The notes under the pieces were generated by a model. The model was not told the origin of the DNA. It ran no database searches and saw only the letters and a list, made by a program, of their open reading frames with translations. DNA of 64,000 nt from Alphaproteobacteria bacterium (GTDB lineage: Bacteria > Pseudomonadota > Alphaproteobacteria > RF32 > CAG-239). Positions 49,466 through 64,000 of this stretch are shown one piece after another (the first letter of the stretch is position 1; each line of letters opens with the position of its first letter). The position numbers and the translations under genes were made by a program. The stretch is taken from the NCBI GenBank assembly GCA_045659785.1, contig JAZRCM010000011.1, positions 4,902 to 68,901 of the forward strand, in the 5' to 3' direction.

Positions 49466-50110
49466 ATGATTGCCAAGTTACGAGGAATTGTTGACAGTTT
49501 TGGCGAGGATTGTGTTGTTATTGATGTCAACGGAGTAGGGTATTTGGTTTATGCCTCAAGCCGAACCTTATCAAAATTGGTAAAAGGCTCTGAAACAACA
49601 CTTTTTATAGAAACGGTAGTCAGAGAAGACAGTATAAGTTTATATGGTTTTGGTGCGGCATTAGAAAAAGAATGGTTTTTAACGCTTACTAAAGTGCAAG
49701 GAGTGGGCGCAAAGGTATGTTTAAGCATTTTATCTGCTTTGACACCGTCACAACTAGCACAAGCAATTGCGGCTCAGGATAAGGCTTCTTTCACTCGAGC
49801 AAACGGTGTAGGTCCGAAATTGGCTGCCAGAATCGTTACCGAATTAAAAGGAAAAATGGTGGGATTGCCGATTGGTGCAGATACGGCTGATTATGTTGCC
49901 GCTGTCGAAGATTCTCCGTTGACAATAAATGTTGCGGAAGAAAAAACAAACCGCCAAACGGAAGATGCTGTTTCAGCCTTGGTTAATTTGGGATATCCTC
50001 GTGTAGAGGCTTATAGAGCGGTAAATTTGGCATTGGCAAAAAATCCCGAAGCTGATTTTGCTTCTTTGATAAAATCTGCTTTGAAAGAATTTGGCAATAA
50101 GGAGATGTAG
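49466..50110 (+). CDS. ruvA: Holliday junction DNA helicase RuvA
   Basis: MIAKLRGIVD...GVGYLVY N-terminus, HhH motifs (VQGVGAKVCLSIL; ANGVGPKLAARIV). Confidence 0.9.
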   Translation: MIAKLRGIVDSFGEDCVVIDVNGVGYLVYASSRTLSKLVKGSETTLFIETVVREDSISLYGFGAALEKEWFLTLTKVQGVGAKVCLSILSALTPSQLAQAIAAQDKASFTRANGVGPKLAARIVTELKGKMVGLPIGADTADYVAAVEDSPLTINVAEEKTNRQTEDAVSALVNLGYPRVEAYRAVNLALAKNPEADFASLIKSALKEFGNKEM

Positions 50111-50113
50111 TAT

Positions 50114-51178
50114 ATGGAAGAAAGAATAGTTACACCTCATGAGTTGCCGGAAGATGATAACGGAGTTAATGCTCCGGCTAATTTGCGTCCGACCTCGTTG
50201 AGTGATTTTGTCGGGCAAAAGCAAGTTTGTGAAAACTTAAAAATTTTTATTGAAGCGGCAAAAATGCGTGGAGAATCGTTAGACCATGTGTTGTTGTTCG
50301 GACCTCCGGGATTGGGAAAAACAACCTTGGCTTCTATTGTTGCAAAAGAATTAGGAGTCAATTTTAAGGCAACATCCGCACCGATGATTACAAAATCAGG
50401 AGATTTGGCGGCAATTCTCACTAATTTGGAAGCAAATGACGTATTGTTTATTGATGAAATTCATCGTTTGAATCCGGCTATTGAAGAAGTTTTATATTCG
50501 GCGATGGAAGATTTTCAACTTGATTTGATTATCGGAGAAGGTCCGTCGGCTCGTTCTGTCAGACTTCCGTTGCAGCCGTTTACTTTAGTCGGAGCTACTA
50601 CACGTTCCGGATTGCTTTCTACACCTTTACGTGAACGTTTCGGTATTCCTTTACGTTTAGATTTTTACTCTCCGGAAGACTTGGAAAAAATAGTTCTTCG
50701 CGGAGCTCGATTGCTGAATGTTCCGATGTCACCTGAAGGGGCAAGAGAAGTTGCTCGCCGTTCGAGAGGAACGCCTCGTGTTGCCGGTCGATTGTTACGA
50801 CGAGTTCGTGATTTCGGGGCAGTTATTTGTGATGGTGAAATCGGAGAAAAAACTGCAGATATGGCCTTGCAAAGATTAAATGTCGATAAATTCGGGTTAG
50901 ATGCTTTTGATAAACGCTATTTGAATTGTATTGCCAAAAACTACGGCGGAGGTCCGGTCGGAGCGGATACTTTAGCTGCAGCCTTATCGGAAGAAAGAGA
51001 TACCATTGAAGAAGTTATTGAGCCGTTTTTGTTAAAACTGGGCTTTTTACAAAGGACTCCGAGAGGACGTGTTATTTCTGATTTGGGATGTGAATATTTG
51101 AGGATTCCGAAATTGCGTAAAAATGTAAAGCAATATAGCGAACAAGATGATTTATTCGGGAGCGAAGATAATGAGTAA
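50114..51178 (+). CDS. ruvB: Holliday junction ATP-dependent DNA helicase RuvB
   Basis: Walker [10 protein letters not shown], Walker [11 protein letters not shown], sensor and winged-helix domains. Confidence 0.95.
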
Positions 51179-51611
51179 GGTTGAAACTGCACAAGGTAAG
51201 TTTGAAGGAAATAAGTTTTATTTTCCGGTAAGAGTATATTATGAAGATACCGATGCCGGCGGTATAGTTTATTATGCTAACTATTTGAAGTTTGCGGAAA
51301 GAGCTCGTACCGAATATGTGAGAGCAATCGGTTTGCGACAACAAGATGCCTTAGAACAAGAAGAAAAAGCTGCATTTGTAGTTCGTCATTGTGATATTGA
51401 TTATAAATCTCCGGCGGTTTTGGATGATTTGTTGACCGTAGTTTGTGAAGTTACGGAGTTTGGAGGGGCTTCAGTGGTGATGCACCAAGATATTATGCGA
51501 GGAGATGATGTTTTGGTCAGTTTAGACATTAAAGTTGTTTATGTTTTGTTGAAAAATAAACGACCGTCCCGTTTGCCGGCAGAACTTATAAAAAGTTTTA
51601 AGGGGGAATAA
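51171..51611 (+). CDS. ybgC: Tol-Pal-associated acyl-CoA thioesterase
   Basis: 4HBT hot-dog fold ([15 protein letters not shown]). Overlaps the ruvB stop. Placed ruvB-ybgC-tolQ as in alphaproteobacteria. Confidence 0.8.
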
Positions 51612-51668: not shown

Positions 51669-52502
51669 TTACATATCTGCATGAACATAAGTATGTTTTT
51701 TCTTTTTCGGTTCCTTGTTTGTGCAATATGTATCAATGACAAACAGGAAGGCGATAAAACACAGTATGTAGGTGAATGAATATATCCACCAAGTGCTCGG
51801 AACAATCTCTCCGTACTTGAGGGTTTCTTCATCAATCAGCTTTTCAGATGCAAAAAATGTGTCTCTGAATTGATAAACATGGACATTCTGTCCTTCCACT
51901 AATGGTTCTTTGGTGCAAATGTCTTTTGAGTAGTGCAAAATTCCGTGAGGATTGTTGTAGTAAACGATGTTGTTCTCTACGCTCGAAATCGTTCCTTGCC
52001 CGACATATTTACTGCTTTCATAATCTAAAGCGACTATTATAATAATAGCTAAAGGAATCAAAAAGCAGATAATTTTGCCCTCTGTTGATACATTGACAAA
52101 TACAACAACCAGTATCAATACGATGATACCGACAATCAGGCAATTCGTTGAGGTTTCAGTATCGGAAAATTCGGTTTCTTTCAACATGTCCCTAATTGCG
52201 CGAGCATCTTCAAGATTTACTTTGCTGATTGCGTACTGGTCATCACAACGATAGACATAAACTCCGGTTGTATCTTCAACTAAAATACGCTGAAGAGCCC
52301 AACTCGGATTAGCTAAGTCTTCGGTGTTGGGAACAATATAAGTTACATCGGTGCTGTCTTTTTCAACACGGATATACTTATCACGAACAATCTCACATTT
52401 TTCGGCATAATCAATCAATTCACACTCGGTATCGATATGGTTGCAGGCAGTAAATGCGGACAACAACACGATACTGGTCAAAAACAGAAAAATCTTTTTC
52501 AT
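51669..52502 (-). CDS. Lipoprotein with Cys-rich N-domain, TM hairpin and C-terminal domain, tandem paralog 1
   Basis: Lipobox LLSAFTAC. CxxxxC..C..C cluster. DARAIR motif. 2+1 TM helices. NPHGIL and VPSTWWIY blocks are shared with the next gene. Confidence 0.55.
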   Translation of the reverse strand: MKKIFLFLTSIVLLSAFTACNHIDTECELIDYAEKCEIVRDKYIRVEKDSTDVTYIVPNTEDLANPSWALQRILVEDTTGVYVYRCDDQYAISKVNLEDARAIRDMLKETEFSDTETSTNCLIVGIIVLILVVVFVNVSTEGKIICFLIPLAIIIIVALDYESSKYVGQGTISSVENNIVYYNNPHGILHYSKDICTKEPLVEGQNVHVYQFRDTFFASEKLIDEETLKYGEIVPSTWWIYSFTYILCFIAFLFVIDTYCTNKEPKKKKHTYVHADM

Positions 52503-52588
52503 AAGCGTGTATTTTAATAAGTTAATAATTTTTTTTCGTGCGAAAAATATACATCACCACAAAAGTAAAGTCAATTTTTTTAATAAAA

Positions 52589-52618
52589 AAACCGTCGAAT
52601 ATAAAAATTCGGCGGTTT
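52589..52618. terminator. Terminator (aaaaaaaccgtcgaatataaaaattcggcggttt), a copy of the 51616 element
   Basis: Same stem sequence as the 51616-51648 hairpin. Confidence 0.5.
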
Positions 52619-52638
52619 GTTTTACGGTCATTTGAAAA

Positions 52639-53523
52639 CTACTCTTTGTTGTCTTCTTTTACCTCCTCAACGCTGTGTTCGTAGAACATCTTGTTTTTGT
52701 GTCGGCAGAAGATAAATTGCCAAAGTGCATATATGACAAGAAGTACGGCGATGAGATAGAAAACAATAAACGATGCTATAAACGTTATGGTGTAAATCCA
52801 CCAAGTGCTCGGAACAGTTTCCGAATACTGAAGAGTTGCATCGTCAATTCGCTTTTCTGAAGCAAAGTACGTGTCTTCAAACTGATAGATGTTAACTTCC
52901 TGACCTTCGTGCAGAGGTTTGCTTGTGCAAATGTCGTTCGAATGTTGCAAGATACCGTGAGGATTGTCCACATATACAACATTGTTTTCAATGTTAGTGA
53001 CGGTTCCTTTTCCTATAAATTTTACGGCTTCTACATCAGCAGCAGTTGCGATGATTATAAAGCCTATCGGAATGAATAACAGCAAGAACTTGATGCTGTC
53101 TTTGCTTGTCATAGAGAAAAGTATGAAAACAATCAGTGCTATAACGAGCACAATTCCGCATCTTGCGGCAATTTTCCAATTGCTGAACTCTTCACTTTTT
53201 AAGACATTACGAATAGCGCGGGCATCGTCTACGTTAATTTTGCTGATGGCATATTTGTCATCACACTTGTAGATATAGACATTTTCGCCGTCGTTAACCA
53301 GATTTCTGACTAAAAACGAGGCGGATGGCTCCAAGAAGTCCTCAGTATTGGGGACCATGTAGAAGACATCTGCACTATCTTTTTCAACGCAGACATACTC
53401 GTCAGTAACTACCATGCAGTTTTCGGCATAGTCAACAAGTTCACACTCTGTATTGATTTTGTTGCAGGCAGTAAATGCGGACAACAAAACAATTCCGGTC
53501 AAGAATAAAAAAACTTTTTTCAT
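52639..53523 (-). CDS. Lipoprotein, tandem paralog 2 (roughly 55-60% identical to paralog 1 by eye)
   Basis: Same architecture and collinear motifs as 51669-52502. Own TTGACT-type promoter and conserved aaagtcaattttttta upstream motif. Confidence 0.55.
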   Translation of the reverse strand: MKKVFLFLTGIVLLSAFTACNKINTECELVDYAENCMVVTDEYVCVEKDSADVFYMVPNTEDFLEPSASFLVRNLVNDGENVYIYKCDDKYAISKINVDDARAIRNVLKSEEFSNWKIAARCGIVLVIALIVFILFSMTSKDSIKFLLLFIPIGFIIIATAADVEAVKFIGKGTVTNIENNVVYVDNPHGILQHSNDICTSKPLHEGQEVNIYQFEDTYFASEKRIDDATLQYSETVPSTWWIYTITFIASFIVFYLIAVLLVIYALWQFIFCRHKNKMFYEHSVEEVKEDNKE

Positions 53524-53691
53524 AAGCTGGAAATTTAATGTGTTAATAATTTTTCTTTATGGACAAAAATTTATACTAAACGGATGAAAAAGTCAATTTT
53601 TTTATTTAAAATGCTATAAATTAATTGATTTTTTAACTTTTTATAGTAGGTTATGCTCAACTATCAGTATGTCAAATTTTATGAGGTAAAA

Positions 53692-54435
53692 ATGGAAACG
53701 CAAACTTTAGCAGATGTTGCAAACGGCAGTTCTATGTCGATGTGGGATATGATTTGGAATTCTGACTTTGTTACTCAGGTGGTAATGATCGGTTTGATTT
53801 TGGCTTCGGTATGGTCTTGGGCGATTATTATTGACAAAGTTGTTACTTTAAGAGATGTAAGACGTCGTTCTCGCAGTTTTGAGTCTAAATTTTGGTCTGG
53901 CGGTTCATTGGATAAGCTTTATGAAAATATAGATAACACTCCTGATAATCCGATGGCGGCAATGTTTGTTGCGGCAATGAGAGAATGGCGTCGTACCAAT
54001 ATTATGAAATCCAAAACTGACAGAGGTTTGCGAGGTGTTTCTTTGCAACAAAGAATTGAAAAAGCGATGGCTGTATCAATGGATAAAGAGATTGAAGCTC
54101 TTGATACCAAAATGGGGTTTTTAGCTTCTACCGGTTCGGTTGCTCCGTTGGTAGGTTTGTTTGGAACGGTTTGGGGAATTATCGACTGCTTTAATGCTAT
54201 CGCTGCAACGCAAAGTAATTCTTTAGGGGCGATTGCTCCGGGTATTGCGGAAGCTCTTTATACAACCGCTTTCGGTTTGATTGCCGCTATCCCTGCGTGG
54301 GTTGCTTATAATAAAATTTCTGCTGATATTGACAGTTATGCTAATAAACTTGAAAATTTTTCTGCTGAATTTTCAAGCATTTTATCTCGTGAAATTGATG
54401 ATACTGCGATTAGGGCTGATATGGCAGGTGAATAA
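53692..54435 (+). CDS. tolQ: Tol-Pal system protein TolQ
   Basis: MotA/TolQ/ExbB family. 3 TM helices and the conserved C-terminal GLxGTVxG motif. Start at the ATG with a gaggt RBS. Confidence 0.85.
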   Translation: METQTLADVANGSSMSMWDMIWNSDFVTQVVMIGLILASVWSWAIIIDKVVTLRDVRRRSRSFESKFWSGGSLDKLYENIDNTPDNPMAAMFVAAMREWRRTNIMKSKTDRGLRGVSLQQRIEKAMAVSMDKEIEALDTKMGFLASTGSVAPLVGLFGTVWGIIDCFNAIAATQSNSLGAIAPGIAEALYTTAFGLIAAIPAWVAYNKISADIDSYANKLENFSAEFSSILSREIDDTAIRADMAGE

Positions 54436-54905
54436 TGGCATATTTGTTAAGAACAAAAACAAGTCGCCGCAGAAGTCGTCGTAATGCCGAGGTTAATATG
54501 ACAAACCTCATGGATATTATGATGGTTTTGTTGGTGGTGTTTATGGTTACGGCTCCTATGATGACATCGGGGATTGCTCTCGATTTACCTAAAGTAGGAG
54601 GTAAAAATTTAGTAGGAAAAGAAACAACCTTAAATATCAGTGTTGATGAGGCCGGTTATTATTACATCGGTAAAGAAGAAATTCCTGCCGATGAAATTGT
54701 AAATAAAGTAAAAGCCGTAAGAGATGCTAATCCGGAAATAAGTGTTATAATTTCCGGAGATACCGGAGCTCAATACGGTAGAGTTTTGGGGTTGATGGCT
54801 TTGCTTAAAAATGCCGGTTTTGATAAAGTAGGGTTAAAAACCGATCCGGCTCCTAACAGTAATGTAAAAACTCAAAATAATAATGTAAAAACAAAGAAGA
54901 AGTAA
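54435..54905 (+). CDS. tolR: Tol-Pal system protein TolR
   Basis: ExbD/TolR family. Single TM with conserved Asp (NLMDIMMVLLVVF). Confidence 0.8.
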   Translation: MAYLLRTKTSRRRSRRNAEVNMTNLMDIMMVLLVVFMVTAPMMTSGIALDLPKVGGKNLVGKETTLNISVDEAGYYYIGKEEIPADEIVNKVKAVRDANPEISVIISGDTGAQYGRVLGLMALLKNAGFDKVGLKTDPAPNSNVKTQNNNVKTKKK

Positions 54906-54909
54906 AAAA

Positions 54910-55872
54910 TTGAGAAAATCGTCCTTATATAAATCACTGGCTTTGCATTTGGTTGTCGTTATTTTAACGGCAATTGATGTGTCAGTGCTGTGGCGTAAGG
55001 ATATGTCGTTAGACCAAGTGCCGATTATTGTCGATTTGAATGAGGTGAAACTTTCAGAGTTGACCAATCTTCCGACTAAAGCAGAATTTGGCGAAAAAAA
55101 TACTCCGGCAACTAAGGTAAAAAAAGAACAACCGAAGGCAAAAGAAAAAGAACAGCCGAAACAAGATGAGCCTAAAGAAGTAAAAGTTGAAAAGACAAAA
55201 GAAAAAACTCCGCAAAAGGAAGAACCTGTAAATCCTAAAAAAGATTTTATCGTTCCTCCCGAGCCGGAAAAGAAGCCTGAGCCTAAGAAAAAACCGGAAC
55301 CTAAGCCTAAACCGGCCCCTAAGCCTCAGCCTAAAAAGAAAGAAGTTGCCAAGAAAAAGCCGGAGACTAAAAAGCCTGCTCCCAAAAAATCAGAACCGGT
55401 TTTAGCTAATCCGCTAAAAGATTTGTTGGCCTCCGTTGACAATATGGAGAAAAAACTCGGTGAACAAAATGCAAATGCAACCATCAAGACCGGTACTAAG
55501 GTTAACAATATGGGAATAGAGGGCGGTATCGGAGGTTCATATTTTAGCGACTTATCAATTTCCGAAGCCGATGCTATTGCCGGAAGATTACGTGCTTGTT
55601 GGAATTTGGACCCCGGAGCAATGGGGATTGAAGACATGATAATAGAAATCAGAGCTTCGCTCAATAAGGACGGAACCGTCAAAGATGTTGATATTTTAGA
55701 TAAAGCAAGATATAACAGTGACAGACACTTTAAGGCGGTTGCCGATAGTGCAAAACGTGCGGTTTATATTTGTGCTCCTTATGGTATTTTGTCGCAAAAA
55801 TATCCGCATAAGTATGATATGTGGAAAACGATGTTGTTAAGGTTTAATCCGATTAATCATAGTGTGAATTAA
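54910..55872 (+). CDS. tolA: TolA-like protein
   Basis: N-terminal TM anchor, long K/E/P-rich domain II, small C-terminal globular domain. TTG start per the ORF track. Confidence 0.65.
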   Translation: MRKSSLYKSLALHLVVVILTAIDVSVLWRKDMSLDQVPIIVDLNEVKLSELTNLPTKAEFGEKNTPATKVKKEQPKAKEKEQPKQDEPKEVKVEKTKEKTPQKEEPVNPKKDFIVPPEPEKKPEPKKKPEPKPKPAPKPQPKKKEVAKKKPETKKPAPKKSEPVLANPLKDLLASVDNMEKKLGEQNANATIKTGTKVNNMGIEGGIGGSYFSDLSISEADAIAGRLRACWNLDPGAMGIEDMIIEIRASLNKDGTVKDVDILDKARYNSDRHFKAVADSAKRAVYICAPYGILSQKYPHKYDMWKTMLLRFNPINHSVN

Positions 55873-55885
55873 TTAAGGAAATAAT

Positions 55886-56617
55886 ATGGCAGAAATAAGA
55901 AAAATTTTGCTTAAGAGATTGTTTGTAAACAGTACAAAATATTGTATCAGAAAATGGCATGAAATGGCGTTATTTTCGATTGTAAATGCTATTTTTATGA
56001 TTGTCGGTTTTAAGTTTATTAACGGATGGCAAGATAAACTTTTTTTATTGTGGCTAATCCCTTACTATATGTTTTGGTATTCGTTTTTCCGTTTTTATTT
56101 TGAACGAAAACCATATATGATAACATCAAAGATTTTTGAAACATTGATGCCGTCTTCGCGTATTTTCGGTTTGATGTTGTTTTTTACAACTCTGCTTATC
56201 GCTATTCCGTTGGTAATTCCGTTTATTAGTGATAACCACTCTTGGGTGGATAGATACATATTCTATCTGCAAAAACATATGGAAGATCCGTTGATTTTGA
56301 ATACGATAACCATGGTTATATTCAGTATTGCTTCGCCGTTTATTTTTTATCGCCCGATGATGGGGTGGATTGGTTCGGTTATCGGTCGTAGCGGCTTACT
56401 TTCTAGCGCATACGCACGCACAAAAGGAAACTATTGGGAATTTTTATTAATCACCATCGTTTTTAATTTGGTGTATTCAATAATGCAATTTTGTGACAAT
56501 CATTTGGGAACAGCAGGATGGTTAACAATTTTGTTAGGTTCTCCCGTGGTCGTGTTTATGAACGTGATTTTAGCAAAAACATACGAATATTTCTTTTTGG
56601 AAATAGACAACGGTTAA
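55886..56617 (+). CDS. Polytopic membrane protein, hypothetical
   Basis: 243 aa, about 6 TM helices, no family recognised. Occupies the position where tolB would be expected. Confidence 0.45.
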   Translation: MAEIRKILLKRLFVNSTKYCIRKWHEMALFSIVNAIFMIVGFKFINGWQDKLFLLWLIPYYMFWYSFFRFYFERKPYMITSKIFETLMPSSRIFGLMLFFTTLLIAIPLVIPFISDNHSWVDRYIFYLQKHMEDPLILNTITMVIFSIASPFIFYRPMMGWIGSVIGRSGLLSSAYARTKGNYWEFLLITIVFNLVYSIMQFCDNHLGTAGWLTILLGSPVVVFMNVILAKTYEYFFLEIDNG

Positions 56618-56642
56618 AAGATTTTTCTTAATTTTGCTACGT

Positions 56643-57302
56643 TTATTTTAATATTTTCAAAATAGCGACAACTTTCGCCAAGCAAGACAATTTATTTAAA
56701 TTACTGATTGTTATTGGCGGATATAAAGGGTTGTCGGATATTATTTGTGCATTGTGCTCAAATTCGTTAAAACAAAGGCGTTTTATAAATAATTCTCCTT
56801 GTAATTCGAACAAATAAATACCGTCATATTCAGGTTTTGTAATTGATGTGTCAACAATGGCTATATCTTTGTCGCATACTGTGGGCAACATGGTGTCTCC
56901 GCGCACAATAATTGCTTTCAGTGAATGTATGGAAGCGGAGCCAAGATTGTTGAAAAAGTTTTTGCTGATAGGATATTGTCCGACAACCGGAGCGGATAAT
57001 CCTTTTCCTTCCGTTGTGGCGCAGTCAATAATATCTGCAAAAAATATTTGCTCATCGGTTGTTGATGATTTTTGTGTCGGTTGAGGAATTTCGTTTGAAA
57101 AACCGGAATTGAATTTGGTTAGAGCTTCCAAATCGAGATTGAAAAATTGTGCGGCAGGTAAAACTTTATCAACCGGTAAATCTCTTTTTCCACATAAAAG
57201 TTCTGATATTCGAGGCTTTTTCCAATTCAATGCTTCAGCGGCATCTTGTTGGCTGATTTTGTTTTGACGCATATAATCTCTTAACCATTTCCATTTTGAC
57301 AT
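56643..57302 (-). CDS. Phage CI/LexA-like repressor (XRE HTH + S24 peptidase domain)
   Basis: N-terminal HTH (NKISQQDAAEALNWKKPRISEL). C-terminal S24 fold (IVRGDTMLPT; FIKRL with catalytic Ser/Lys spacing). Confidence 0.75.
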   Translation of the reverse strand: MSKWKWLRDYMRQNKISQQDAAEALNWKKPRISELLCGKRDLPVDKVLPAAQFFNLDLEALTKFNSGFSNEIPQPTQKSSTTDEQIFFADIIDCATTEGKGLSAPVVGQYPISKNFFNNLGSASIHSLKAIIVRGDTMLPTVCDKDIAIVDTSITKPEYDGIYLFELQGELFIKRLCFNEFEHNAQIISDNPLYPPITISNLNKLSCLAKVVAILKILK

Positions 57303-57398
57303 ATTTTCTTCCTTTTACCAAATATGTATTTTTTATATTACGATAATTCATTTAAATCAAGTAATAGTTGCGTATCAGAATAAAAATATCAACATATT

Positions 57399-57435
57399 TA
57401 CATAAAATGTATTGACAACAATTACATAAAATGTA
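57399..57435. promoter_or_regulatory. Two copies of the palindrome tacataaaatgta (57399-57411 and 57423-57435) flanking a ttgaca -35 hexamer, candidate repressor operators
   Basis: Read directly. Located in the divergent region between the repressor gene and the rightward gene. Confidence 0.45.
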
Positions 57436-57457
57436 TTTTATTTTTGCGGAGGTCAAT

Positions 57458-57955
57458 ATGAAAAAATATGATGAAACATACATTGATAAAGCTAAATGTA
57501 TAAAAGATGGTTTTATTCGCACTAAAAAAGGCGTTTGTAAAATGACGGTTTTGGAAAGGTTATATCATAAAGGAAAACTTGATTTCGGTTCATCAGGAGC
57601 AGGAGCTGTTGACCGCCTAAAAGCCGGAGAATATTTGGCATCAGATTATGAAAAAGGGCATTTTAACGTAATCGGTTCCGCTTGGGGCGGCGAGAAGGTA
57701 GATTGCGGAAATTCCAATGTTTCAAACGGTGTTTTAACCGAAATGAGAAGTCGCTATTTTATGGCGGCAAAATCCGTTCCGTCAGAATTTTGGCCCATTG
57801 TCAGAGCTGTTTGTATTGAAAATAAATTACCGGAAATTGACAATTCTTATTCTGAAAGGAAAAGAGGAGAAATTGCGTATTTGCAATATTGTGACCTGTG
57901 TCGTGGTTTGGACAGATTAATAGAATTTTATCATAAGACAAAAATACAACTATAA
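57458..57955 (+). CDS. Hypothetical protein (prophage early region)
   Basis: Start at the ATG after a gcggaggt RBS. Cys-containing. No family recognised. Confidence 0.4.
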   Translation: MKKYDETYIDKAKCIKDGFIRTKKGVCKMTVLERLYHKGKLDFGSSGAGAVDRLKAGEYLASDYEKGHFNVIGSAWGGEKVDCGNSNVSNGVLTEMRSRYFMAAKSVPSEFWPIVRAVCIENKLPEIDNSYSERKRGEIAYLQYCDLCRGLDRLIEFYHKTKIQL

Positions 57956-58058
57956 GTATATATTAAATTATGTTTTGCAAATTTCTGTTATTAATTGTAA
58001 AAAATGATTTTTAATAATTTTAGGTTGTGTTATAGGTTGTTTATAAATGGAGGTTTTT

Positions 58059-58373
58059 ATGAAAATGGAACTAATTACTGCAAAGAAAACAAAGGTATCT
58101 CCGCAAAATATTACGGATGGGATATATGGTTTGATTAATTTACTTTCAAATACAGACTTAAATAATAAGCAATCTATATTGATATATAACATATTATACG
58201 GAGCTTATGCCTTATTGAAAAGATATGAAACAGCAAGCAGGGAATCTTTACTTATCGCATCGGTTGAGGAGGATAATGATAATATGCGTAAATATATCGA
58301 AACTTTACATAAAAATGCTCTTCATGATGAGGTTATAATTCCTATGATAGTGGCGGAAAATATAGATATTTGA
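58059..58373 (+). CDS. Hypothetical protein
   Basis: ATG 5 nt after a ggagg RBS. About 104 aa. Confidence 0.35.
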   Translation: MKMELITAKKTKVSPQNITDGIYGLINLLSNTDLNNKQSILIYNILYGAYALLKRYETASRESLLIASVEEDNDNMRKYIETLHKNALHDEVIIPMIVAENIDI

Positions 58374-58551
58374 AAAGTTATCCACAACCTTAATTAGATA
58401 ATATTGACTTTTTCGACGGTTTGTGGTATGTATTTTTTCTAGAATGGAACAGGTGGCTTCAGAGATAAGCTGCCTGTTTTTTTGTGTGAAATTTGACCGA
58501 AGAGAGTATGTTATTTTCTTCGGTTTTTTTATTTTTAGGAGAGAATAAAAA

Positions 58552-59274
58552 ATGGCAAACGAAACTTATAACATTTTACAAGGCATATTTAACGGACAAA
58601 CACCGATACAACGCAGTAATCCGGTGAGCGGAGAAAGCAATTATTATTATATGAAACCTAATCAAAATTCTTATACTCCGTTGTCACAAATGCAAACCGT
58701 TGATGTGCCGTCGGCAACAACTCCAAATCCGTATTTGAGGGAGGGATATGGTAATTCGTATTCTAAAAACTCTTTTGGAGATTATTTTGCAGAAAATATT
58801 ACGGATAAGACTATGACTGATAATAAAGAAAAATTTGATATAAACAGATTTATGAAAATATATGCAGAGAATTTAAATAATTTAAATCCTGGATATAGAA
58901 TTGGCGAGACAGCGAATAATCTTTATGAAGGGAAAAGTTTTTTGAGAAACGCCAAAGTTCACGGATTAGATAATTATGTTCATCGTTTAGCGATGTGTCA
59001 AAACGCACAAGACGGAATAGACAAGTACTTATATACACAAGGGATGGGATTATTAAACGAAGCAAAGGATTTAATTGAAAAAACGGAGTTTTCTAGACTT
59101 AATGAAAAAGAGGTGAGAGAAAAATTTGTTAATGACCTTATAGACTCTGGAAAGGATATAAAAAATAACTTTGAAGGAGCAAATTGGGGCTTGCTTAATC
59201 CAAATAAATCTTGTATAATGTGGCTTAAAGATTTAGATTATAAAAACAATGTTTGGAAGAATAAAAATGATTAA
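58552..59274 (+). CDS. Polymorphic-toxin-like protein 1: conserved 60-aa N-terminus + unique C-terminal domain
   Basis: The first ~60 residues (MANETYNILQGIFNGQTPIQR.NP.SG.SNYYYMKPNQNSYTPLSQMQTVDVPSATTPN) are nearly identical to 59430-59921. The C-terminal 180 aa are unrelated to it. Preceded by two terminator hairpins. Confidence 0.5.
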   Translation: MANETYNILQGIFNGQTPIQRSNPVSGESNYYYMKPNQNSYTPLSQMQTVDVPSATTPNPYLREGYGNSYSKNSFGDYFAENITDKTMTDNKEKFDINRFMKIYAENLNNLNPGYRIGETANNLYEGKSFLRNAKVHGLDNYVHRLAMCQNAQDGIDKYLYTQGMGLLNEAKDLIEKTEFSRLNEKEVREKFVNDLIDSGKDIKNNFEGANWGLLNPNKSCIMWLKDLDYKNNVWKNKND

Positions 59275-59362
59275 AGAATTTAAGTTAATATGCAAGACCA
59301 CGTTAATTTGCATGGGTGTAACTTTTTTTGTTATTGCTCCCATTGTGGGATTATTTTTATAA
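59267..59362 (+). CDS. Tiny single-TM protein (31 aa, MIKEFKLICKTTLICMGVTFFVIAPIVGLFL) overlapping the toxin-1 stop, immunity-like
   Basis: ATG embedded in the aatgattaa stop context. Related to the 45-aa protein at 60190-60327. Confidence 0.3.
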   Translation: MIKEFKLICKTTLICMGVTFFVIAPIVGLFL

Positions 59363-59429
59363 CAGAAAGTAATTTTTTTACAAGCCGCTCTTTAATTAGG
59401 GCGGTTTTTGTTTTTGGTAGAATATAAAA

Positions 59430-59921
59430 ATGGCAAATGAAACTTATAATATTTTACAAGGCATATTTAACGGGCAAACTCCGATACAACGCACTAACCC
59501 GATGAGCGGACAAAGCAATTATTATTATATGAAACCTAATCAAAATTCTTATACTCCATTGTCACAAATGCAAACCGTTGATGTGCCGTCAGCAACAACT
59601 CCAAACCTGTATTTGACGGAAGAGGAACCTAATTTTATAGAAAAAGGTATTTCTTTAATTCAAGACGGAGTAACGGCTTTCAAATATTATAAGGAAATGG
59701 ATGAAACAAATAAAAAGCTTATAAATATGTATGGAAAAGGGGCTTTTGATTTTGTTAGAAAAAATAATAGGCCTTGGACAGAAGTATCTGCAGATGCGAT
59801 AAAGGACTTGACGAACAATCGCTATGGTTCTAAAGTCGGTTATAGTAATAGAGAGGCAAATTGCAGAGATTTGTTGGGACATTTAAGGACAGGAAATATG
59901 ATAAATGCAGGTATTAAATAA
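59430..59921 (+). CDS. Polymorphic-toxin-like protein 2: same N-terminus, different C-terminal domain
   Basis: 163 aa. N-terminal 60 aa match protein 1. The C-terminus (..GSKVGYSNREANCRDLLGHLRTGN..) is unrelated to it. Confidence 0.5.
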   Translation: MANETYNILQGIFNGQTPIQRTNPMSGQSNYYYMKPNQNSYTPLSQMQTVDVPSATTPNLYLTEEEPNFIEKGISLIQDGVTAFKYYKEMDETNKKLINMYGKGAFDFVRKNNRPWTEVSADAIKDLTNNRYGSKVGYSNREANCRDLLGHLRTGNMINAGIK

Positions 59922-60102
59922 AATACTGGATGTGTTATTAAAGATAACTATATTTCCTTACATTATCGTTCTGTTATTGTTTATCGGATATAAAATTTAT
60001 GAACATAATGTAAAAAAGGAATATATTGAAGCTTGTTTAAAACATGAGAAGAATGTAGAGGTCTGTTCTCAAGAAGCAAATAAAGTTTTTGATGAAATGT
60101 GA
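59905..60102 (+). CDS. Small TM protein with CX8C (65 aa), immunity-like partner of toxin-like protein 2
   Basis: Overlaps the 3' end of 59430-59921. Single TM helix then ...EACLKHEKNVEVCSQ. Paralog at 60525-60692. Confidence 0.4.
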   Translation: MQVLNKILDVLLKITIFPYIIVLLLFIGYKIYEHNVKKEYIEACLKHEKNVEVCSQEANKVFDEM

Positions 60103-60107
60103 AAAAT

Positions 60108-60200
60108 TGATATGGCTTGCAAAACCCGAATAAATCTTGTATAATGTGGCTTAAAGATTTAGACTACAAAAATAATGTTTGGAGAAAAAATGATACGAGA
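60108..60200 (+). pseudogene. Orphan 3' fragment of a toxin-1-type C-terminal domain (..NPNKSCIMWLKDLDYKNNVWRKND)
   Basis: About 80 nt nearly identical to 59197-59274. No start codon or N-terminal region. Confidence 0.45.
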
Positions 60201-60327
60201 TAAAATTACTTTTATTTCTAAGGATGGAATAAAAACCGACTGTAAAAATATCGTCAATGGTGTTATGAAGATTTGTTTATATGTGTGGGCAATTTTAATT
60301 TTGGCAACACCATTTTTTGTTCCATAG
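60190..60327 (+). CDS. Small TM protein (45 aa, MIRDKITFISKDGIKTDCKNIVNGVMKICLYVWAILILATPFFVP), full-length version of the 59267 gene
   Basis: ggag RBS. ATG overlaps the end of the orphan fragment exactly as 59267 overlaps toxin 1. Confidence 0.4.
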   Translation: MIRDKITFISKDGIKTDCKNIVNGVMKICLYVWAILILATPFFVP

Positions 60328-60337
60328 TGTTGATTTA

Positions 60338-60372
60338 TGTTTTTTATAAACCGCTCTTTTTAGAGCGGTTTT
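60338..60372 (+). terminator. Rho-independent terminator (aaaccgctctttttagagcggtttttt)
   Basis: Perfect 9 bp stem. A degenerate copy of the same element follows the 59267 gene at about 59376-59400. Confidence 0.5.
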
Positions 60373-60395
60373 TTGTTTTTATGGGAGAATAAAAA

Positions 60396-60524
60396 ATGAA
60401 ACTTATAATAAGAATTTTAAGGACTTGACGAATAATCGCTATGGTTTTAAAGTTGGCTATAGTGATAAAACGGCAAATTGCAGAGATTTGTTGGGGCATT
60501 TAAGAACAGGAAAGATAAAAAAAT
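60396..60524 (+). pseudogene. Internally deleted remnant of a toxin-2-type gene (start codon + 12 nt joined to the last ~110 nt of the C-terminal domain)
   Basis: The upstream context ggagaataaaaaatg and the segment ggacttgacgaataatcgctatgg...gcagagatttgttggggcatttaagaacagga match 59430-59921. Stop codon after 10 codons. Confidence 0.45.
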
Positions 60525-60692
60525 ATGAATTTTTATAAAAGACTTGCGTATTATTCAGTGGTTTTCATACTGTTTTTTGCGATATTGATTTATATGCTTA
60601 TCGTAGATTATGAAAAATCCGGCGATAAGTTTATATTAGAATGTATGCAAGCCGGTAAAAGTTATGAATTTTGTAAAAACCAGTGGTATTAA
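60525..60692 (+). CDS. Small TM protein with CX9C (55 aa), paralog of 59905-60102
   Basis: MNFYKRLAYYSVVFILFFAILIYMLIV TM helix then ILECMQAGKSYEFCKNQWY. Followed by a gccccaattatttggggc terminator at about 60694-60720. Confidence 0.4.
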   Translation: MNFYKRLAYYSVVFILFFAILIYMLIVDYEKSGDKFILECMQAGKSYEFCKNQWY

Positions 60693-60898
60693 GAAAAAAA
60701 GCCCCAATTATTTGGGGCTTGTTCCAATCCTTTACCTGGGCTAGCAACTCAAGTAAAGATACTAAATGAGCGATTTCGATTTCTATCTCACTAGTGGATA
60801 GTGACAATATATCATATATAAAGGTGAAAATCAATAAAAAGATAAAGATACTTCGTAAAATATAGAGATGTTTCTTATTGATTTTGTGATAAAAAACA

Positions 60899-60955
60899 AA
60901 AAATGTTCTATTTTTGTTCAAAAAATATTTGACAATGTTCTATTTTTGTTCTATT
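60899..60955 (+). promoter_or_regulatory. Promoter with a direct repeat: aaaatgttctatttttgttc appears twice, with ttgaca between the copies and a tattgt -10
   Basis: The ~19-nt unit is repeated about 33 nt apart, the second copy forming the spacer of a ttgaca-17-tattgt promoter upstream of the 60988 gene. Confidence 0.35.
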
Positions 60956-60987
60956 GTTTTTTTATAATCAAAATTGGGGGAATAAAA

Positions 60988-61203
60988 ATGAATAAGACAA
61001 TAAGTTTTGAAGATGTATTGATATTTTTTACAGCAATAGCAGCTGTTTTAAGTTTGTTTATGATGATAGTGGTTATTTGCTTGAGCGGAACAAAATATTT
61101 GGCATTTATATTTTTTAATATTATGTTGGTTGTAGGAGCTTGGATTTTAGATTATAAAGGCATAAATCCAAAGAGTATGTTAAAAATTTGTTTGCGCAGG
61201 TAA
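60988..61203 (+). CDS. Small membrane protein (2 TM, 71 aa)
   Basis: ATG after a ttggggga RBS. Hydrophobic. Confidence 0.4.
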   Translation: MNKTISFEDVLIFFTAIAAVLSLFMMIVVICLSGTKYLAFIFFNIMLVVGAWILDYKGINPKSMLKICLRR

Positions 61204-61204
61204 T

Positions 61205-61648
61205 ATGAAAAAAGCAAAAAGAATATTGGGCTTAGCAATAAAATTTACAATAATATTTATTGTTTTGTCGGTAGTTTTTGATTTTGTTGCTGAAATTAAT
61301 ACTATAGCTGCATATATGCCAAAAGATAGATATGTTTTAATTTTGAGTGAAATTTTGGCGATATTGGGAATATGGAAAATTACGAAAACAAAATGGAAAT
61401 GGTGGGTTAAGCTTTTTGCTGTTCTTTTTACGGTAGTTTTTTTGAGCAAAATATTGACCATATTTCCGGAGTATCGTTTTTATAAAGCGGAAGAGATGTG
61501 TCATGAAGGAAAAATTTGCCGACAAGGTATTGTGTTAGAGGATGAATATGGCAAAAAATATTCAGTAGATGAAAAAATATGTAAGGAATATAACGGAAGG
61601 TGGATGACAGAATATCAGGCTTGTGATTTTAATCCGCCTCAACCTTAA
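61205..61648 (+). CDS. Membrane protein with a Cys-rich C-terminal domain
   Basis: 147 aa. 3 TM helices then CHEGKICRQG...CKEYNGRWMTEYQACDF. A terminator hairpin (aaatcgctcttatgagcgattt + T9) follows at about 61663-61690. Confidence 0.4.
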   Translation: MKKAKRILGLAIKFTIIFIVLSVVFDFVAEINTIAAYMPKDRYVLILSEILAILGIWKITKTKWKWWVKLFAVLFTVVFLSKILTIFPEYRFYKAEEMCHEGKICRQGIVLEDEYGKKYSVDEKICKEYNGRWMTEYQACDFNPPQP

Positions 61649-61716
61649 AACAGGTACATTAAATCGCTCTTATGAGCGATTTTTTTTTGTGAAATATTTT
61701 AAAAAAGGAAATTAAA

Positions 61717-63075
61717 ATGAATTTTAGAAATGTGTGGGAAGATACATTAGATGTTGGAAAATCCGTAGGCAAAGGTTTATTATCCGGAACGGAAAGTGCA
61801 TTAAACGGAGCAACTTTAGGCGGTTATCGTTGGTTGGGAGATAAGGTTGGTTTGGGAGTTTCGCAAAGAGCGAGAGAATTGCAACAACAGGCAGATGCAG
61901 CCGGAGTAGGCGGCTTAAATCAAGTCGGTAATTTTTTTGCAGAAATGGGAGGTTCTTTGCGAGGATTAAGCAATTTAGGGTATAATGCCATCAGAAAAGG
62001 AATTAGTATTTTAGCACCGCAAATGTCAAAATCAGTTGTTGCACCGAGCATATTATCCGGCACGGCAGAATCAGCAATAAACAGCACATTTGAAAATGAT
62101 TTTTTAAATTGGCAAGAGGTTGGAAAAGATACAGTTCAAGGATTGGGAATATCAACCCTTTTGAGCAGATTTGGAACATTGGCAAATAAAGGATTGCGTA
62201 GTTTACGAGATTATATGACCTTACCTTATAAAAATATAGAAACAATGAACTTTGCCCCTACAAGAGAACAACTATTAAAATATCCTGCAGAAAGCAGGTT
62301 TAACTTACCCGAAAAAACTTTGACTACTTCCGAGGCTGAAAATGTTTTGCGTAATAGAGCCCAGAATAGTGGTGTTGAGATTGGAGGAAATATTGACCAT
62401 TATTTAAATAAAAGGGGGAGACAACAATATGTAAGAACATTATCAAATACTCTTGAAAATCCTGATATTACTTATTCTTTAGGTAATAAAAATTATTTTG
62501 TAAAAAAATATAATGGGGTTCAAGGAAAAGAAGTGAAACTGTTTAATGATTTCATTGTTAAAAAGGATGGTAAATTATATACTAAGTTTGTTCCTGATGA
62601 TTTGGATTACGTAAGTAATCAGCTAATAAAAAACAACCCGCAAGACCTGTCCTTACGGGGAGTTACCAACAGTACGGAGCCGACAGGTGGTAAAGTTGGA
62701 ACCTCTTTTTACAAAAAAAATATACCATATTATGATATTGTTGTCAATTCCAAACTGCCTCACGTTAGCTCGTTATCCGAGGGGTTAAATGGTGTTCAAA
62801 AACAACAATTCGGTGATAGTTTTCGAGATGTAATGAGAAATAATTCTCAAAAATTGGGGACATTAGGTAGTATGTATCAATTACGGGATAATATTGAAAA
62901 TAAACCGTACTTGAGTTCGGTTACCGACAAGTTAAGCGAGGCAATTTTGACAGCAGAGCAGAATGCCAATATGCCAAGATGGACAAGATTGTTACAATCA
63001 ATGCCAAATAAATTTAATAGTAAATATCCTTATTTTGCCAATACATTAAGTTGGATGGGAAGCAGAGAATATTAA
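61717..63075 (+). CDS. Hypothetical protein (452 aa), Gly-rich N-terminal region
   Basis: No signal peptide. GxxxG-rich N-terminus. A terminator (aaaccgctcataaaagcggttt + T8) follows at about 63064-63095. Confidence 0.4.
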   Translation: MNFRNVWEDTLDVGKSVGKGLLSGTESALNGATLGGYRWLGDKVGLGVSQRARELQQQADAAGVGGLNQVGNFFAEMGGSLRGLSNLGYNAIRKGISILAPQMSKSVVAPSILSGTAESAINSTFENDFLNWQEVGKDTVQGLGISTLLSRFGTLANKGLRSLRDYMTLPYKNIETMNFAPTREQLLKYPAESRFNLPEKTLTTSEAENVLRNRAQNSGVEIGGNIDHYLNKRGRQQYVRTLSNTLENPDITYSLGNKNYFVKKYNGVQGKEVKLFNDFIVKKDGKLYTKFVPDDLDYVSNQLIKNNPQDLSLRGVTNSTEPTGGKVGTSFYKKNIPYYDIVVNSKLPHVSSLSEGLNGVQKQQFGDSFRDVMRNNSQKLGTLGSMYQLRDNIENKPYLSSVTDKLSEAILTAEQNANMPRWTRLLQSMPNKFNSKYPYFANTLSWMGSREY

Positions 63076-63108
63076 ACCGCTCATAAAAGCGGTTTTTTTT
63101 ATGGAGAT

Positions 63109-63612
63109 ATGATGAAAAAAACAAAAGATTATAAAAGTGAATATGCTCAAAAACTTGTAGCGTGGTTTCGTGATGCTCCGTTGTTTGTTGAAGAAACAAA
63201 AGAAGTTTTCAGCAAAAAGTCGGATAAAATAGAAACAATTATCGAAAAACAACCCGCTCCTTGCCCGAGTGTAGTTCGTTTTGCCGATAATCTGAAAATA
63301 AATGTTGAGGATATTTTGCGTTGGCGAGAAAAAAATTCCGAATTTAAATCCGCTTATGAGCAAGCAATGTATTTTCGGGAAGAATGGTTGATGAATGCAG
63401 CCGGATTGGGTTTTTATAATTCATCAATGTCAATTATGGCATTGAAGGCAAATCACGGTTGGTCGGAGAAAAGCGAAAAACAGTTGATTGATGACGGGAT
63501 CAAACAAGTTTTAGTTCAATTTGTAAAAGATAAAGGAGAAAATTATGAAAAAAATAACGGCGAAAATTCCGCAAATATTTGCTCCGCTAATGACGAAAAA
63601 ATATCGGATTAA
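63109..63612 (+). CDS. Phage terminase small subunit
   Basis: 167 aa. Conserved helix-rich region VVRFADNLKINVEDILRWREKNSEFKSAYEQAMYFREEWLMNAAGLG typical of TerS. Overlaps the start of the next gene. Confidence 0.55.
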   Translation: MMKKTKDYKSEYAQKLVAWFRDAPLFVEETKEVFSKKSDKIETIIEKQPAPCPSVVRFADNLKINVEDILRWREKNSEFKSAYEQAMYFREEWLMNAAGLGFYNSSMSIMALKANHGWSEKSEKQLIDDGIKQVLVQFVKDKGENYEKNNGENSANICSANDEKISD

Positions 63613-64000
63613 ATTTTATTATGGAGGGAGAGCCGGCGGAAAAAGTTATGCTTTTGCTGACAGTTTGTTGTTGTTGGGCAGAAAGAAAAAATTGTTCATA
63701 GCTTGTTTGCGCGAAATTCAGGATAGCATAAAAGATTCCGTTTATAAGTTGTTGTGTGACAGAATATCTTTTTACGGTTTGAACGACTACAAGATTTTTG
63801 AGGATAAAATAGAAAACAAAATTACCGGAACACGTTTTATTTTTAAGGGGTTGCGAGAGCAAGATGCACAAAAAATAAAATCGTTGGAAGGTGTTGATAT
63901 AGCTTGGATTGAAGAGGCTCAAACCATATCGGCAACTTCGTGGGAAGTACTAGAGCCGACTATCAGAAAAGACGGTTCAGAAATTTGGATTTCGATGAAT
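63545..64000 (+). CDS. Phage terminase large subunit (partial, runs off the window end)
   Basis: Translates to MKKITAKIPQIFAPLMTKKYRIKFYYGGRAGGKSYAFADSLLLLGRKKKLFIACLREIQDSI... Contains a Walker A GGRAGGKS and a PBSX/XtmB-type TerL N-terminus. Not in the ORF track because no stop codon occurs before the end of the window. Confidence 0.75.
   Translation, partial: MKKITAKIPQIFAPLMTKKYRIKFYYGGRAGGKSYAFADSLLLLGRKKKLFIACLREIQDSIKDSVYKLLCDRISFYGLNDYKIFEDKIENKITGTRFIFKGLREQDAQKIKSLEGVDIAWIEEAQTISATSWEVLEPTIRKDGSEIWISMN

Follow-up and report, generated by a model that had tools for sequence, protein, structure and literature searches.

Results

Late genes and ends of the element

We analysed a 64,000-nt stretch of DNA (the window) from a low-G+C alphaproteobacterium, in which the tolQ-tolR-tolA genes are followed by genes of phage type. 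The part from position 56643 to the end at 64000 is probably the left third of a compact element of podovirus type, derived from a phage and fixed in the chromosome, which begins with a repressor gene and continues through early and accessory genes to those of the small and large terminase subunits, TerS and TerL (Table 1). The G+C content was 0.38-0.42 at 49-55 kb and 0.28-0.35 past 56.5 kb. A preliminary description of the region had listed a six-transmembrane (6-TM) gene, the repressor, several small open reading frames (ORFs), TerS and TerL; every one of these genes was found again in its place, and the family matches of the repressor (helix-turn-helix, HTH, and S24 domains), of TerS and of TerL upheld the view that the region is derived from a phage.

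The window's own copy can be read only to 64000, where terL is incomplete, and a look-up of its TerS gave no more than a JGI contig of 967 bp. A metagenome contig, L058, is 99.35% identical to positions 63073-64000 (the last 928 bp) and runs on for 12.4 kb. L002 belongs to a species-level relative, with about 89% nucleotide identity to the window, and L011 is 100% identical to L002 across their overlap, so that the L002+L011 composite spans the entire element. The closest public relatives are uncultured gut metagenome-assembled genomes, RGIG4207 from roe deer colon and RGIG9009 from water deer rectum, both entered as "Alphaproteobacteria bacterium"; remoter TolA homologs are labelled "Azospirillum sp. 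47_25" and "Candidatus Scatocola", the latter being placed in Rhodospirillales by NCBI. At the tolQRA locus the element is carried by the window, L002, L004, L022/L023 and L016, and L007-L009 and L005/L006 are element-free.

Structural genes had been expected beyond position 64000, and this proved right: they are intact in L058 and likewise in L002/L011. They form one long rightward late operon encoding TerS, TerL, a GroES-like protein, portal, scaffold, capsid, tail proteins, three fibres, holin-like proteins, endolysin and a spanin-like pair. L058 contains full-length TerL, the GroES-like protein, portal, scaffold, major capsid, two tail proteins, an acetyltransferase, three fibre genes, two small holin-like genes and an endolysin gene that reaches the contig end; all 17 late genes seen there are full length or run to the contig end, with no in-frame stop. 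The structural module is also intact in L002/L011, L012, L013 and L016. Packaging, head, tail and lysis modules are thus present in near-identical and close relatives, and the window itself holds terS and the start of terL. Compared with L002, TerS shows 97% amino-acid identity and TerL 98.7%, with ratios of nonsynonymous to synonymous substitution rates (dN/dS) of 0.03 and 0.012, respectively. By its major capsid protein the element groups with Mx8, ppBjS10J-1 and the Brucella Tb-like podoviruses, whose genomes measure 39-53 kb. The structural genes are not of the RcGTA type; portal, capsid and tail fall into the PHROGs and phage groups of Mx8/Brucella-Tb-type podoviruses. A satellite and a tailocin were also considered, and both were ruled out, since the element encodes its own terminase, portal and capsid.

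In the L002+L011 composite, the nearest relative with both ends known, the element is about 21.8 kb long. At the left end, in L002, the stop codon of the repressor gene lies 12 bp past a host gene of 226 codons. The right end, in L011, consists of a Hydrolase_2 endolysin gene, two genes of 142 and 47 codons, a strong terminator and two small overlapping genes. Both of the latter are conserved in distant copies and one encodes a lipoprotein, which makes the pair spanin-like; it stops 75 bp short of an ABC transporter gene. The right end is identical in layout in L012 and L013.

Two genes next to the left end were assigned to the host. The 6-TM gene lies outside the element because it is also found in element-free relatives, 3' of tolA in L007-L009 (59% identity) and as a homolog in L005/L006 (38%). 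A gene of 223-230 codons stands between the 6-TM gene and the next gene in L002, L004, L016, L022 and L007; this membrane protein gene of about 226 codons is equally a host gene, since it follows tolA and the 6-TM gene in the element-free L007-L009 too. It is missing from the window and present in every relative, with or without the element (compare window 56618-56642 with L002 2151-2831), and was evidently removed from the window by a clean deletion of about 660 bp.

Two further observations concern the right part of the element and its surroundings. In several relatives the element contains a gene of the serum amyloid A family (PF00277, 8e-18, 65 bits against a cutoff of 30.8), and the fold of a vertebrate acute-phase protein in the phage-derived element of a gut bacterium may point to host mimicry. 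Lysozyme-type genes (Glyco_hydro_108, weak Pesticin-like and Phage_lysozyme) occur in host flanks outside the element (L011 20539-20900; L012/L013 19592-20404; L022 2737-3666); they could be bacteriocin-like or remnants of other prophages.

The repressor and its control region

The leftmost gene encodes a CI/LexA-like repressor, both of whose domains, PF01381 and PF00717, scored above cutoff. It is under purifying selection (dN/dS of 0.08 against L002). The catalytic motif GDSM of the S24 domain reads GDTM in the window and L002, GDAM in L022 and L019, and GDSM in L016 only; the catalytic lysine is an arginine in L019, and in the alignment the window repressor has no Ala-Gly at the linker position. 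Classical RecA-driven self-cleavage seems doubtful, since the catalytic serine is replaced by threonine or alanine in most copies. That this serine is lost while the gene stays under purifying selection points to a CI-like repressor that cannot be cleaved and is controlled by other means.

The divergent region between the repressor gene and the next gene, o174, contains a promoter-like match. Two 13-bp palindromes, TACATAAAATGTA, at 57399-57411 and 57423-57435, flank a −35 sequence TTGACA (57412-57417), and a third, imperfect copy of the palindrome lies at 57316-57328, near the start of the repressor gene. All of these motifs are unchanged in five lineages with repressors of no more than 52-58% identity.

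A possible remote DUF6456 protein and an excess of terminators

The o174 protein alone gave no family match, PF20057 (DUF6456) included. When its homologs were scanned, 13 of 17 showed colinear PF20057 matches below threshold, the best with 26.1 bits against a gathering value of 26.3. A profile search of 1.84 billion proteins yielded 152 relatives, and two of the ten that were scanned (E values of 2e-16 and 1e-5) pass the DUF6456 threshold, with 28.5 and 27.9 bits. No PDB entry matched o174 in sequence, and Foldseek found nothing significant in PDB; its predicted fold may remotely resemble that of the Q21 antiterminator and of sigma region 4, the match being modest. DUF6456 is the annotation of GafA (PMC9638019; PMC9765227), and the same pattern as that of o174 has been reported for GafZ, GafA and BrrG (bioRxiv 10.1101/2024.11.20.624540). 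Gene transfer agent (GTA) clusters are controlled by a repressor together with the antiterminators GafZ or BrrG (PMC11150451; bioRxiv 10.1101/2024.11.20.624540). We thus regard o174 as a candidate late-gene activator or antiterminator.

Terminator-like sites are four times as frequent as expected in 55800-64000, with 18 sites compared with 4.2 ± 2.0 in shuffled sequences. On the plus strand, o108 is followed by two of them and o240, o50, o147 and o452 by one apiece, which makes six at gene boundaries 5' of terS. The hairpin behind o452, which directly precedes terS, recurs in L011 (282-303), and terminator-like sites also occur within the late operons of L011 and L019.

Missing functions and relatives of other sizes

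No integrase, excisionase, transposase or replication protein was matched by any ORF of the element in the window, L002/L011, L012, L013, L016, L019 or L031. Likewise, no replication or early module was matched between the repressor gene and terS, an interval that holds only o174, o108 and accessory cassettes. No tRNA gene adjoins the element, and no 10-mer was common to the two junctions of the L002+L011 composite (0.7 expected in shuffles). An integrase and att repeats, which the preliminary description had looked ahead to, were therefore not found in the relatives showing both ends. As to its proposal of a temperate phage or a remnant of one, the phage origin stands and a complete temperate phage does not, as the ends of the relatives are without integrase, replication genes, att repeats or tRNA.

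A scan of IMG/VR with the 520-aa tail protein alone gave no matches; relatives were found there with an alignment of capsid proteins. Their major capsid protein is 72-74% identical to that of the element, and 72-73% in the contigs of about 35 kb, and the gene order from terL to the fibres is the same. The contigs of about 35 kb carry in addition a Cro-like gene, a GapR-like gene, DUF6291 and DNA methylases and, to the left of the repressor gene, eight small genes and a 514-aa serine integrase (phrog_95, 3.5e-58). At the other extreme, minimal versions of about 16 kb consist only of the repressor, an o174 homolog, the 47-aa ORF and the genes from terS through the spanins; they lie at a different locus, beside anmK, and are also without an integrase. 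The element looks like a reduced derivative of a temperate podovirus that would have lost mobility and replication functions, since the relatives of about 35 kb keep the serine integrase, the Cro-like gene and other early genes.

Conservation of the locus and selection on the element

The order tolQRA, 6-TM gene, 226-aa gene and repressor gene was observed in five sequences (the 226-aa gene being lost in the window), in which TolA is from 90% down to 65% identical to that of the window. Pairwise identity matrices of host proteins (TolQ, TolR, TolA, 6-TM) and of element proteins (repressor, o174, o108) group alike, and the element-free L007 nests among the carriers in these comparisons. The sample behind this vertical pattern is small, four or five lineages. 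Between the window and L002, synonymous divergence (dS) was 0.34-0.83 for tolR, tolA and the 6-TM gene and 0.47-1.05 for the repressor gene, o174, o108, terS and terL, with dN/dS values of 0.01-0.14. In a second comparison, L002/L011 with L003/L012, all structural and lysis genes had dN/dS values of 0.01-0.15, and the host genes of the right flank had dS values of 0.05-0.46. These data would most simply be explained by an ancestral insertion followed by vertical descent under selection for function; L007 would have lost the element, and elements would now and then have recombined with one another. That the same site was hit repeatedly and independently, without an integrase, would be less likely.

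Early and accessory genes

The small early gene o108 is conserved in the relatives, and the genes that follow it, in an accessory block at 58.5-63.1 kb, vary. The two cassette genes o240 and o163 begin with a common 216-nt 5' module, 89% identical, and their sequences diverge downstream (layout 58527-60544). Behind them come the small membrane ORFs o65, o55 and o50. Orphan copies of their 3' ends are found at 60114-60190 and 60419-60544, and a truncated module start at 60370-60410. In its C-terminal half, o240 shows 44% identity to the 142-aa protein encoded beside the endolysin in relatives. The dS of the cassettes relative to L002 is 0.11-0.16, compared with 0.5-1.0 for neighbouring genes, and their number varies among relatives; since their dS is far below that of their neighbours, recent exchange of cassettes is suggested. 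In L002 the cassette genes contain in-frame stops. Each cassette is closed by a terminator, as are phage accessory genes with their own promoter and terminator, and the layout resembles that of polymorphic toxin/immunity loci, in which o65 may be immunity-like. No toxin domain was identified in the window; the accessory block of L016 gave a weak Pesticin-like match. A homology of the cassette proteins to the serum-amyloid-A-like protein was not accepted (hhalign E value of 0.014, probability of 3%; a G-x-D-x-Y-x-H motif is all that they share). Further to the right, the closest relatives, L001 and L058, lack o147, and o452 was found only in the window and L002 (70% identity, dN/dS of 0.45), being absent from L001, L003, L004 and L058.

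The tol genes and the absence of tolB-pal

In many Alphaproteobacteria, tolA is followed by tolB and pal. No recognisable tolB or pal was found in the window, the ORFs of at least 110 codons upstream of tolQ having been judged by eye, and no gene of the Pfam TolB, PD40 or OmpA type lies within 10 kb of tolA in the annotated flanks of L004, L005/L006, L007-L009, L016 and L022. In the element-free L007-L009, tolQRA is followed by the 6-TM gene, the 226-aa gene, unrelated minus-strand genes and tRNA-Thr; in L005/L006, which are also element-free, it is followed by an HTH gene, a diversity-generating retroelement, the 6-TM homolog and ligA. The right neighbour of the element is an ABC transporter gene and then a U32 peptidase gene in three relatives, not tolB-pal. 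Thus the absence of tolB-pal after tolA is a trait of the lineage rather than an effect of the insertion, since element-free relatives lack them there too; for the question from which the analysis started, this is a sobering answer. The proposal that the phage had split the tol-pal cluster was thereby contradicted. In the comparison with relatives that the preliminary description had called for, element-free relatives were found to have the 6-TM gene and to lack tolB-pal after tolA as well, which speaks against a split.

The retroelement of L005 (11681-17375) and L006 (11372-17536), human-gut sequences of the "Azospirillum sp. 47_25" type with a TolA 58% identical to that of the window, lies between tolA and the 6-TM gene and comprises the HTH gene, Lcl_C-type target genes, bAvd and a reverse transcriptase. 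Because it sits there, the site downstream of tolA seems to be a recurrent landing place for mobile DNA.

The assignments of tolR and tolA are weaker than those of tolQ and ybgC and rest partly on context; the TolA-like protein has 1016 homologs, one of which is named tolA by JGI. A tandem pair of paralogous minus-strand genes of 277 and 294 codons separates ybgC from tolQ and breaks their usual adjacency. Each product has a lipoprotein-type N-terminus and internal transmembrane segments; a single partial homolog was seen, in L004, and none in remoter relatives.

Table 1. Features of the tolA-downstream region (window coordinates unless another sequence is named).
Feature	Position	Strand	Basis or remark
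ruvA, ruvB	49466-51178	+	gene order
ybgC	51147-51611	+	NCBIfam score above cutoff
two paralogous lipoprotein-like membrane genes	51669-53523	-	
tolQ	53653-54435	+	TIGR02796, 257 bits (cutoff 221); 77-96% amino-acid identity in relatives
tolR	54435-54905	+	best match TIGR02801, 5e-31, below cutoff; orthologs PF02472 ExbD
TolA-like	54910-55872	+	weak TIGR02794 match; assigned by position after tolQR and ybgC
243-aa multi-transmembrane (6-TM) gene	55886-56617	+	no family match
left junction	56618-56642	.	between 6-TM gene and repressor gene
CI/LexA-like repressor (HTH and S24), leftmost element gene	56643-57302	-	PF00717, 8e-15, 55 bits; PF01381, 25.7 bits; phrog_4, 7e-31
divergent control region, 155 bp	57303-57457	.	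between repressor gene and o174
o174, 165 aa from an ATG after a ribosome-binding site	57458-57955	+	candidate remote DUF6456 (GafA-type) protein
o108, conserved small early gene	58047-58373	+	orthologs in L002, L004, L016, L022, L010; no family match
two tandem terminator-like hairpins	58446-58525	+	after o108
o240, cassette protein	58552-59274	+	shares N-terminal ~64 aa with o163; repeat D1; dS 0.11 against L002
terminator-like hairpin	59382-59407	+	after o240
o163, second cassette protein	59430-59921	+	same N-terminal module, other C-terminus; dS 0.16
o65, small membrane protein	59905-60102	+	follows o163; 95% identical in L002 and L004
orphan cassette remnants and o50 ORF (60175-60327)	60114-60544	+	repeats D2, D3, D4
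terminator-like hairpin	60348-60371	+	after o50
o55, small membrane protein	60525-60692	+	98% identical in L002 and L004
o111 and o147, small membrane proteins	60868-61648	+	
terminator-like hairpin	61661-61682	+	after o147
o452, variable gene	61717-63075	+	no family match
terminator-like hairpin	63074-63095	+	directly 5' of terS
TerS (P22 gp3-like)	63109-63612	+	phrog_3064, 1e-21; PF16677, 29.1 bits, just under cutoff of 29.4
TerL, N-terminal 152 aa	63545-64000 (runs off the window)	+	ortholog PF04466, 1.5e-35; phrog_3717
serum-amyloid-A-like gene	L002 11780-12196; L012 2399-2764; L016 10022-10561		right after terL or in accessory block

Discussion

A proposed circuit for a probably domesticated element

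We favour the reading, which we hold to be likelier than its rivals taken together, that the DNA downstream of tolA belongs to a domesticated, vertically inherited, podovirus-type element comparable to GTAs and PBSX and equipped with a GafZ/Q21-like regulator. The preliminary description had named a short, GTA-like cluster as a case that would speak against its own proposal, and this comes near to what was found. For the control of the element we propose a circuit made up of a repressor, a Q-like antiterminator and a late operon. The repressor, bound to its TACATAAAATGTA operators, would hold the rightward promoter off until a signal led to the synthesis of o174; RecA-dependent self-cleavage is a doubtful route for such a signal. 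The o174 protein would then let RNA polymerase pass the intrinsic terminators and reach the packaging, head, tail and lysis genes, upon which particles would be assembled and released by lysis. The absence of recognisable integration and replication genes suggests that the element is unable to propagate itself. Since it could neither excise nor replicate, headful packaging by a gp3-type TerS would fill the heads with chromosomal DNA, in a manner like that of GTAs, of PBSX or of lateral transduction.

Several points weigh against this reading. Like an ordinary prophage, the element still has a repressor of its own, lysis genes and accessory cassettes, and the right part of the window's own copy has to be deduced from relatives. 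The o108 and o452 genes and the small ORFs without family match could encode a recombinase or replication initiator of a new kind. Among the element-free relatives, L007-L009 and L005/L006 have other genes downstream and offer no empty site with the ABC transporter/U32 peptidase flank, so that no precise junction separates an ancestral insertion from a repeated one. A related scaffold of 17 kb, MT835830.1, was deposited as "Bacteriophage sp." from human faeces, and such DNA could be present in virus-like particles. Finally, dS is a mosaic between L002/L011 and L003/L012, from 0.02 for terS/terL (100% protein identity) up to 0.89 for the fibres. The low value for terS/terL, compared with 0.05-0.46 for the flanks, implies that the packaging module has recently recombined between elements and that strictly vertical descent is an approximation.

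Alternative explanations

The same recombination would also suit an active, self-transmissible and unusually small temperate phage, which would integrate and replicate by unrecognised functions of its own or by those of the host or of a helper, for instance a helper phage's serine integrase, and would be found at one site in several species because its target is a conserved attB. We consider such a phage unlikely. It would account for the strong purifying selection on a full set of packaging, head, tail and lysis genes, for the repressor and operator switch and for the classification of related contigs as viral in IMG/VR and GenBank; the near identity of terS/terL between lineages with diverged flanks indicates recent horizontal flow of at least part of the element, and the full-size relatives with an integrase could serve as helpers. 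However, about ten copies contain no integrase, excisionase or replication protein, neither att-like repeats nor a tRNA gene mark the ends, and host genes abut these within 12 and 75 bp. Moreover, the regulatory and terminase genes have diverged at synonymous sites to the same extent as the host genes beside them, the trees are congruent, and with 16-22 kb the element is less than half the size of the genomes with related capsids. Even less probable is a complete temperate prophage inserted into a tolQRA-tolB-pal operon, with tolB-pal just past its right end, an explanation to which we give hardly any credence. The foreign, lower-G+C and phage-like DNA directly after tolQ-tolR-tolA and the usual alphaproteobacterial gene order had made it attractive; it is opposed by the ABC transporter and U32 peptidase genes at the right flank of three relatives, by the absence of tolB-pal after tolA in element-free relatives and of TolB, PD40 or OmpA-type genes up to 10 kb from tolA in five lineages, and by the lack of integrase and att sites.

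A decaying, functionless cryptic prophage remnant that is about to be lost, and of which the window copy might be truncated past 64000, would explain the missing integrase and replication genes. Traces of decay do exist: the neighbouring 226-aa host gene is lost in the window, the cassette genes of L002 contain in-frame stops, orphan fragments lie in the window, the catalytic serine of the repressor is degenerate, and L007 has lost the element or never had it. Neutral decay should, however, bring dN/dS near 1 and cause frameshifts, whereas the regulatory and structural genes show values of 0.01-0.15 at dS up to about 1, the 17 late genes of L058 are free of stops, and the operator and promoter motifs have not changed across lineages. 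A mere remnant is thus improbable.

Comparison with known systems

Like RcGTA and CcGTA, the domesticated element proposed here combines structural and lysis genes of phage origin in a compact cluster that has neither integrase nor replication genes; its locus is fixed, and it has diverged along with the host under purifying selection. The placing of a repressor gene upstream of a regulator that is probably related to DUF6456 recalls the GTA regulators GafA, GafY-GafZ and RogA, and intrinsic terminators also lie inside the CcGTA cluster, where GafZ bypasses them (PMC11150451). The proposed circuit is close to RogA-GafYZ of Caulobacter (PMC11150451) and to AlpR-AlpA. Unlike those of RcGTA, the head and tail genes are of the Mx8/Brucella-Tb-like podovirus type. 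The element also differs from GTAs in that its regulator is a single-domain protein of 165 aa, encoded inside the element beside a CI-like repressor, and in that the lysis genes and accessory cassettes lie inside the cluster. At 16-22 kb, the element is not obviously larger than the capacity of a head; the heads may in fact be larger than the element is long, because related capsids belong to phages of 39-53 kb.

The phage-like bacteriocin PBSX of B. subtilis is fixed at one locus and non-infectious, and it keeps a repressor, a late-gene regulator and terminase, head, tail and lysis genes. Our element is, like PBSX-type defective prophages, a locus-conserved phage derivative with those modules. 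PBSX differs in being myovirus-like, in its Firmicutes host and in its control by Xre and a sigma-like factor; it is known from killing and from the packaging of small DNA fragments, and the element from genes. Compared with lambdoid Q and Q21, o174 lacks sequence-level similarity to Q proteins and its fold match is modest; compared with Q21 and Pseudomonas AlpR-AlpA, the element has no defined Q-binding element or pause site, and its repressor lacks a conserved catalytic serine. As for phages, Mx8 and the Bradyrhizobium phage ppBjS10J-1 share with the element the gene order from terL to the fibres and a major capsid protein 43-46% identical. The Mx8/ppBjS10J-1/Tb-like phages (39-53 kb) and the IMG/VR contigs of about 35 kb differ from it in having an integrase, a Cro-like gene, methylases and other early genes.

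Implications

A narrow literature search found no paper linking GTAs to this gut lineage, which is weak evidence of novelty. More tentatively, and with some doubt on our part, the element could be the first example of an undescribed, independently domesticated podovirus-type system of gene-transfer or killer particles, widespread in uncultured gut Alphaproteobacteria (affiliated to Rhodospirillales by NCBI). Such a system would combine a GafZ/Q21-like switch with headful packaging of host DNA from a fixed site, and would serve as a platform for toxin/immunity-like cassettes that are quickly exchanged and for host-mimicking genes such as the serum-amyloid-A-like one.

The relatives of about 35 kb with an integrase, the element of about 21 kb with its cassettes and the minimal element of about 16 kb form a natural reduction series, in which the course of domestication could be followed. 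If particles are made, this would be a domestication of a phage independent of the known alphaproteobacterial GTAs, in common bacteria of the human and animal gut, and it would have started from a different type of phage, an Mx8/Tb-like podovirus, and yet have a GafA-domain-related regulator and a terminator-laden operon. If true, this would support the descent of GafA/GafZ-type regulators from phage late-gene antiterminators, and antitermination as a general way of controlling domesticated phage clusters.

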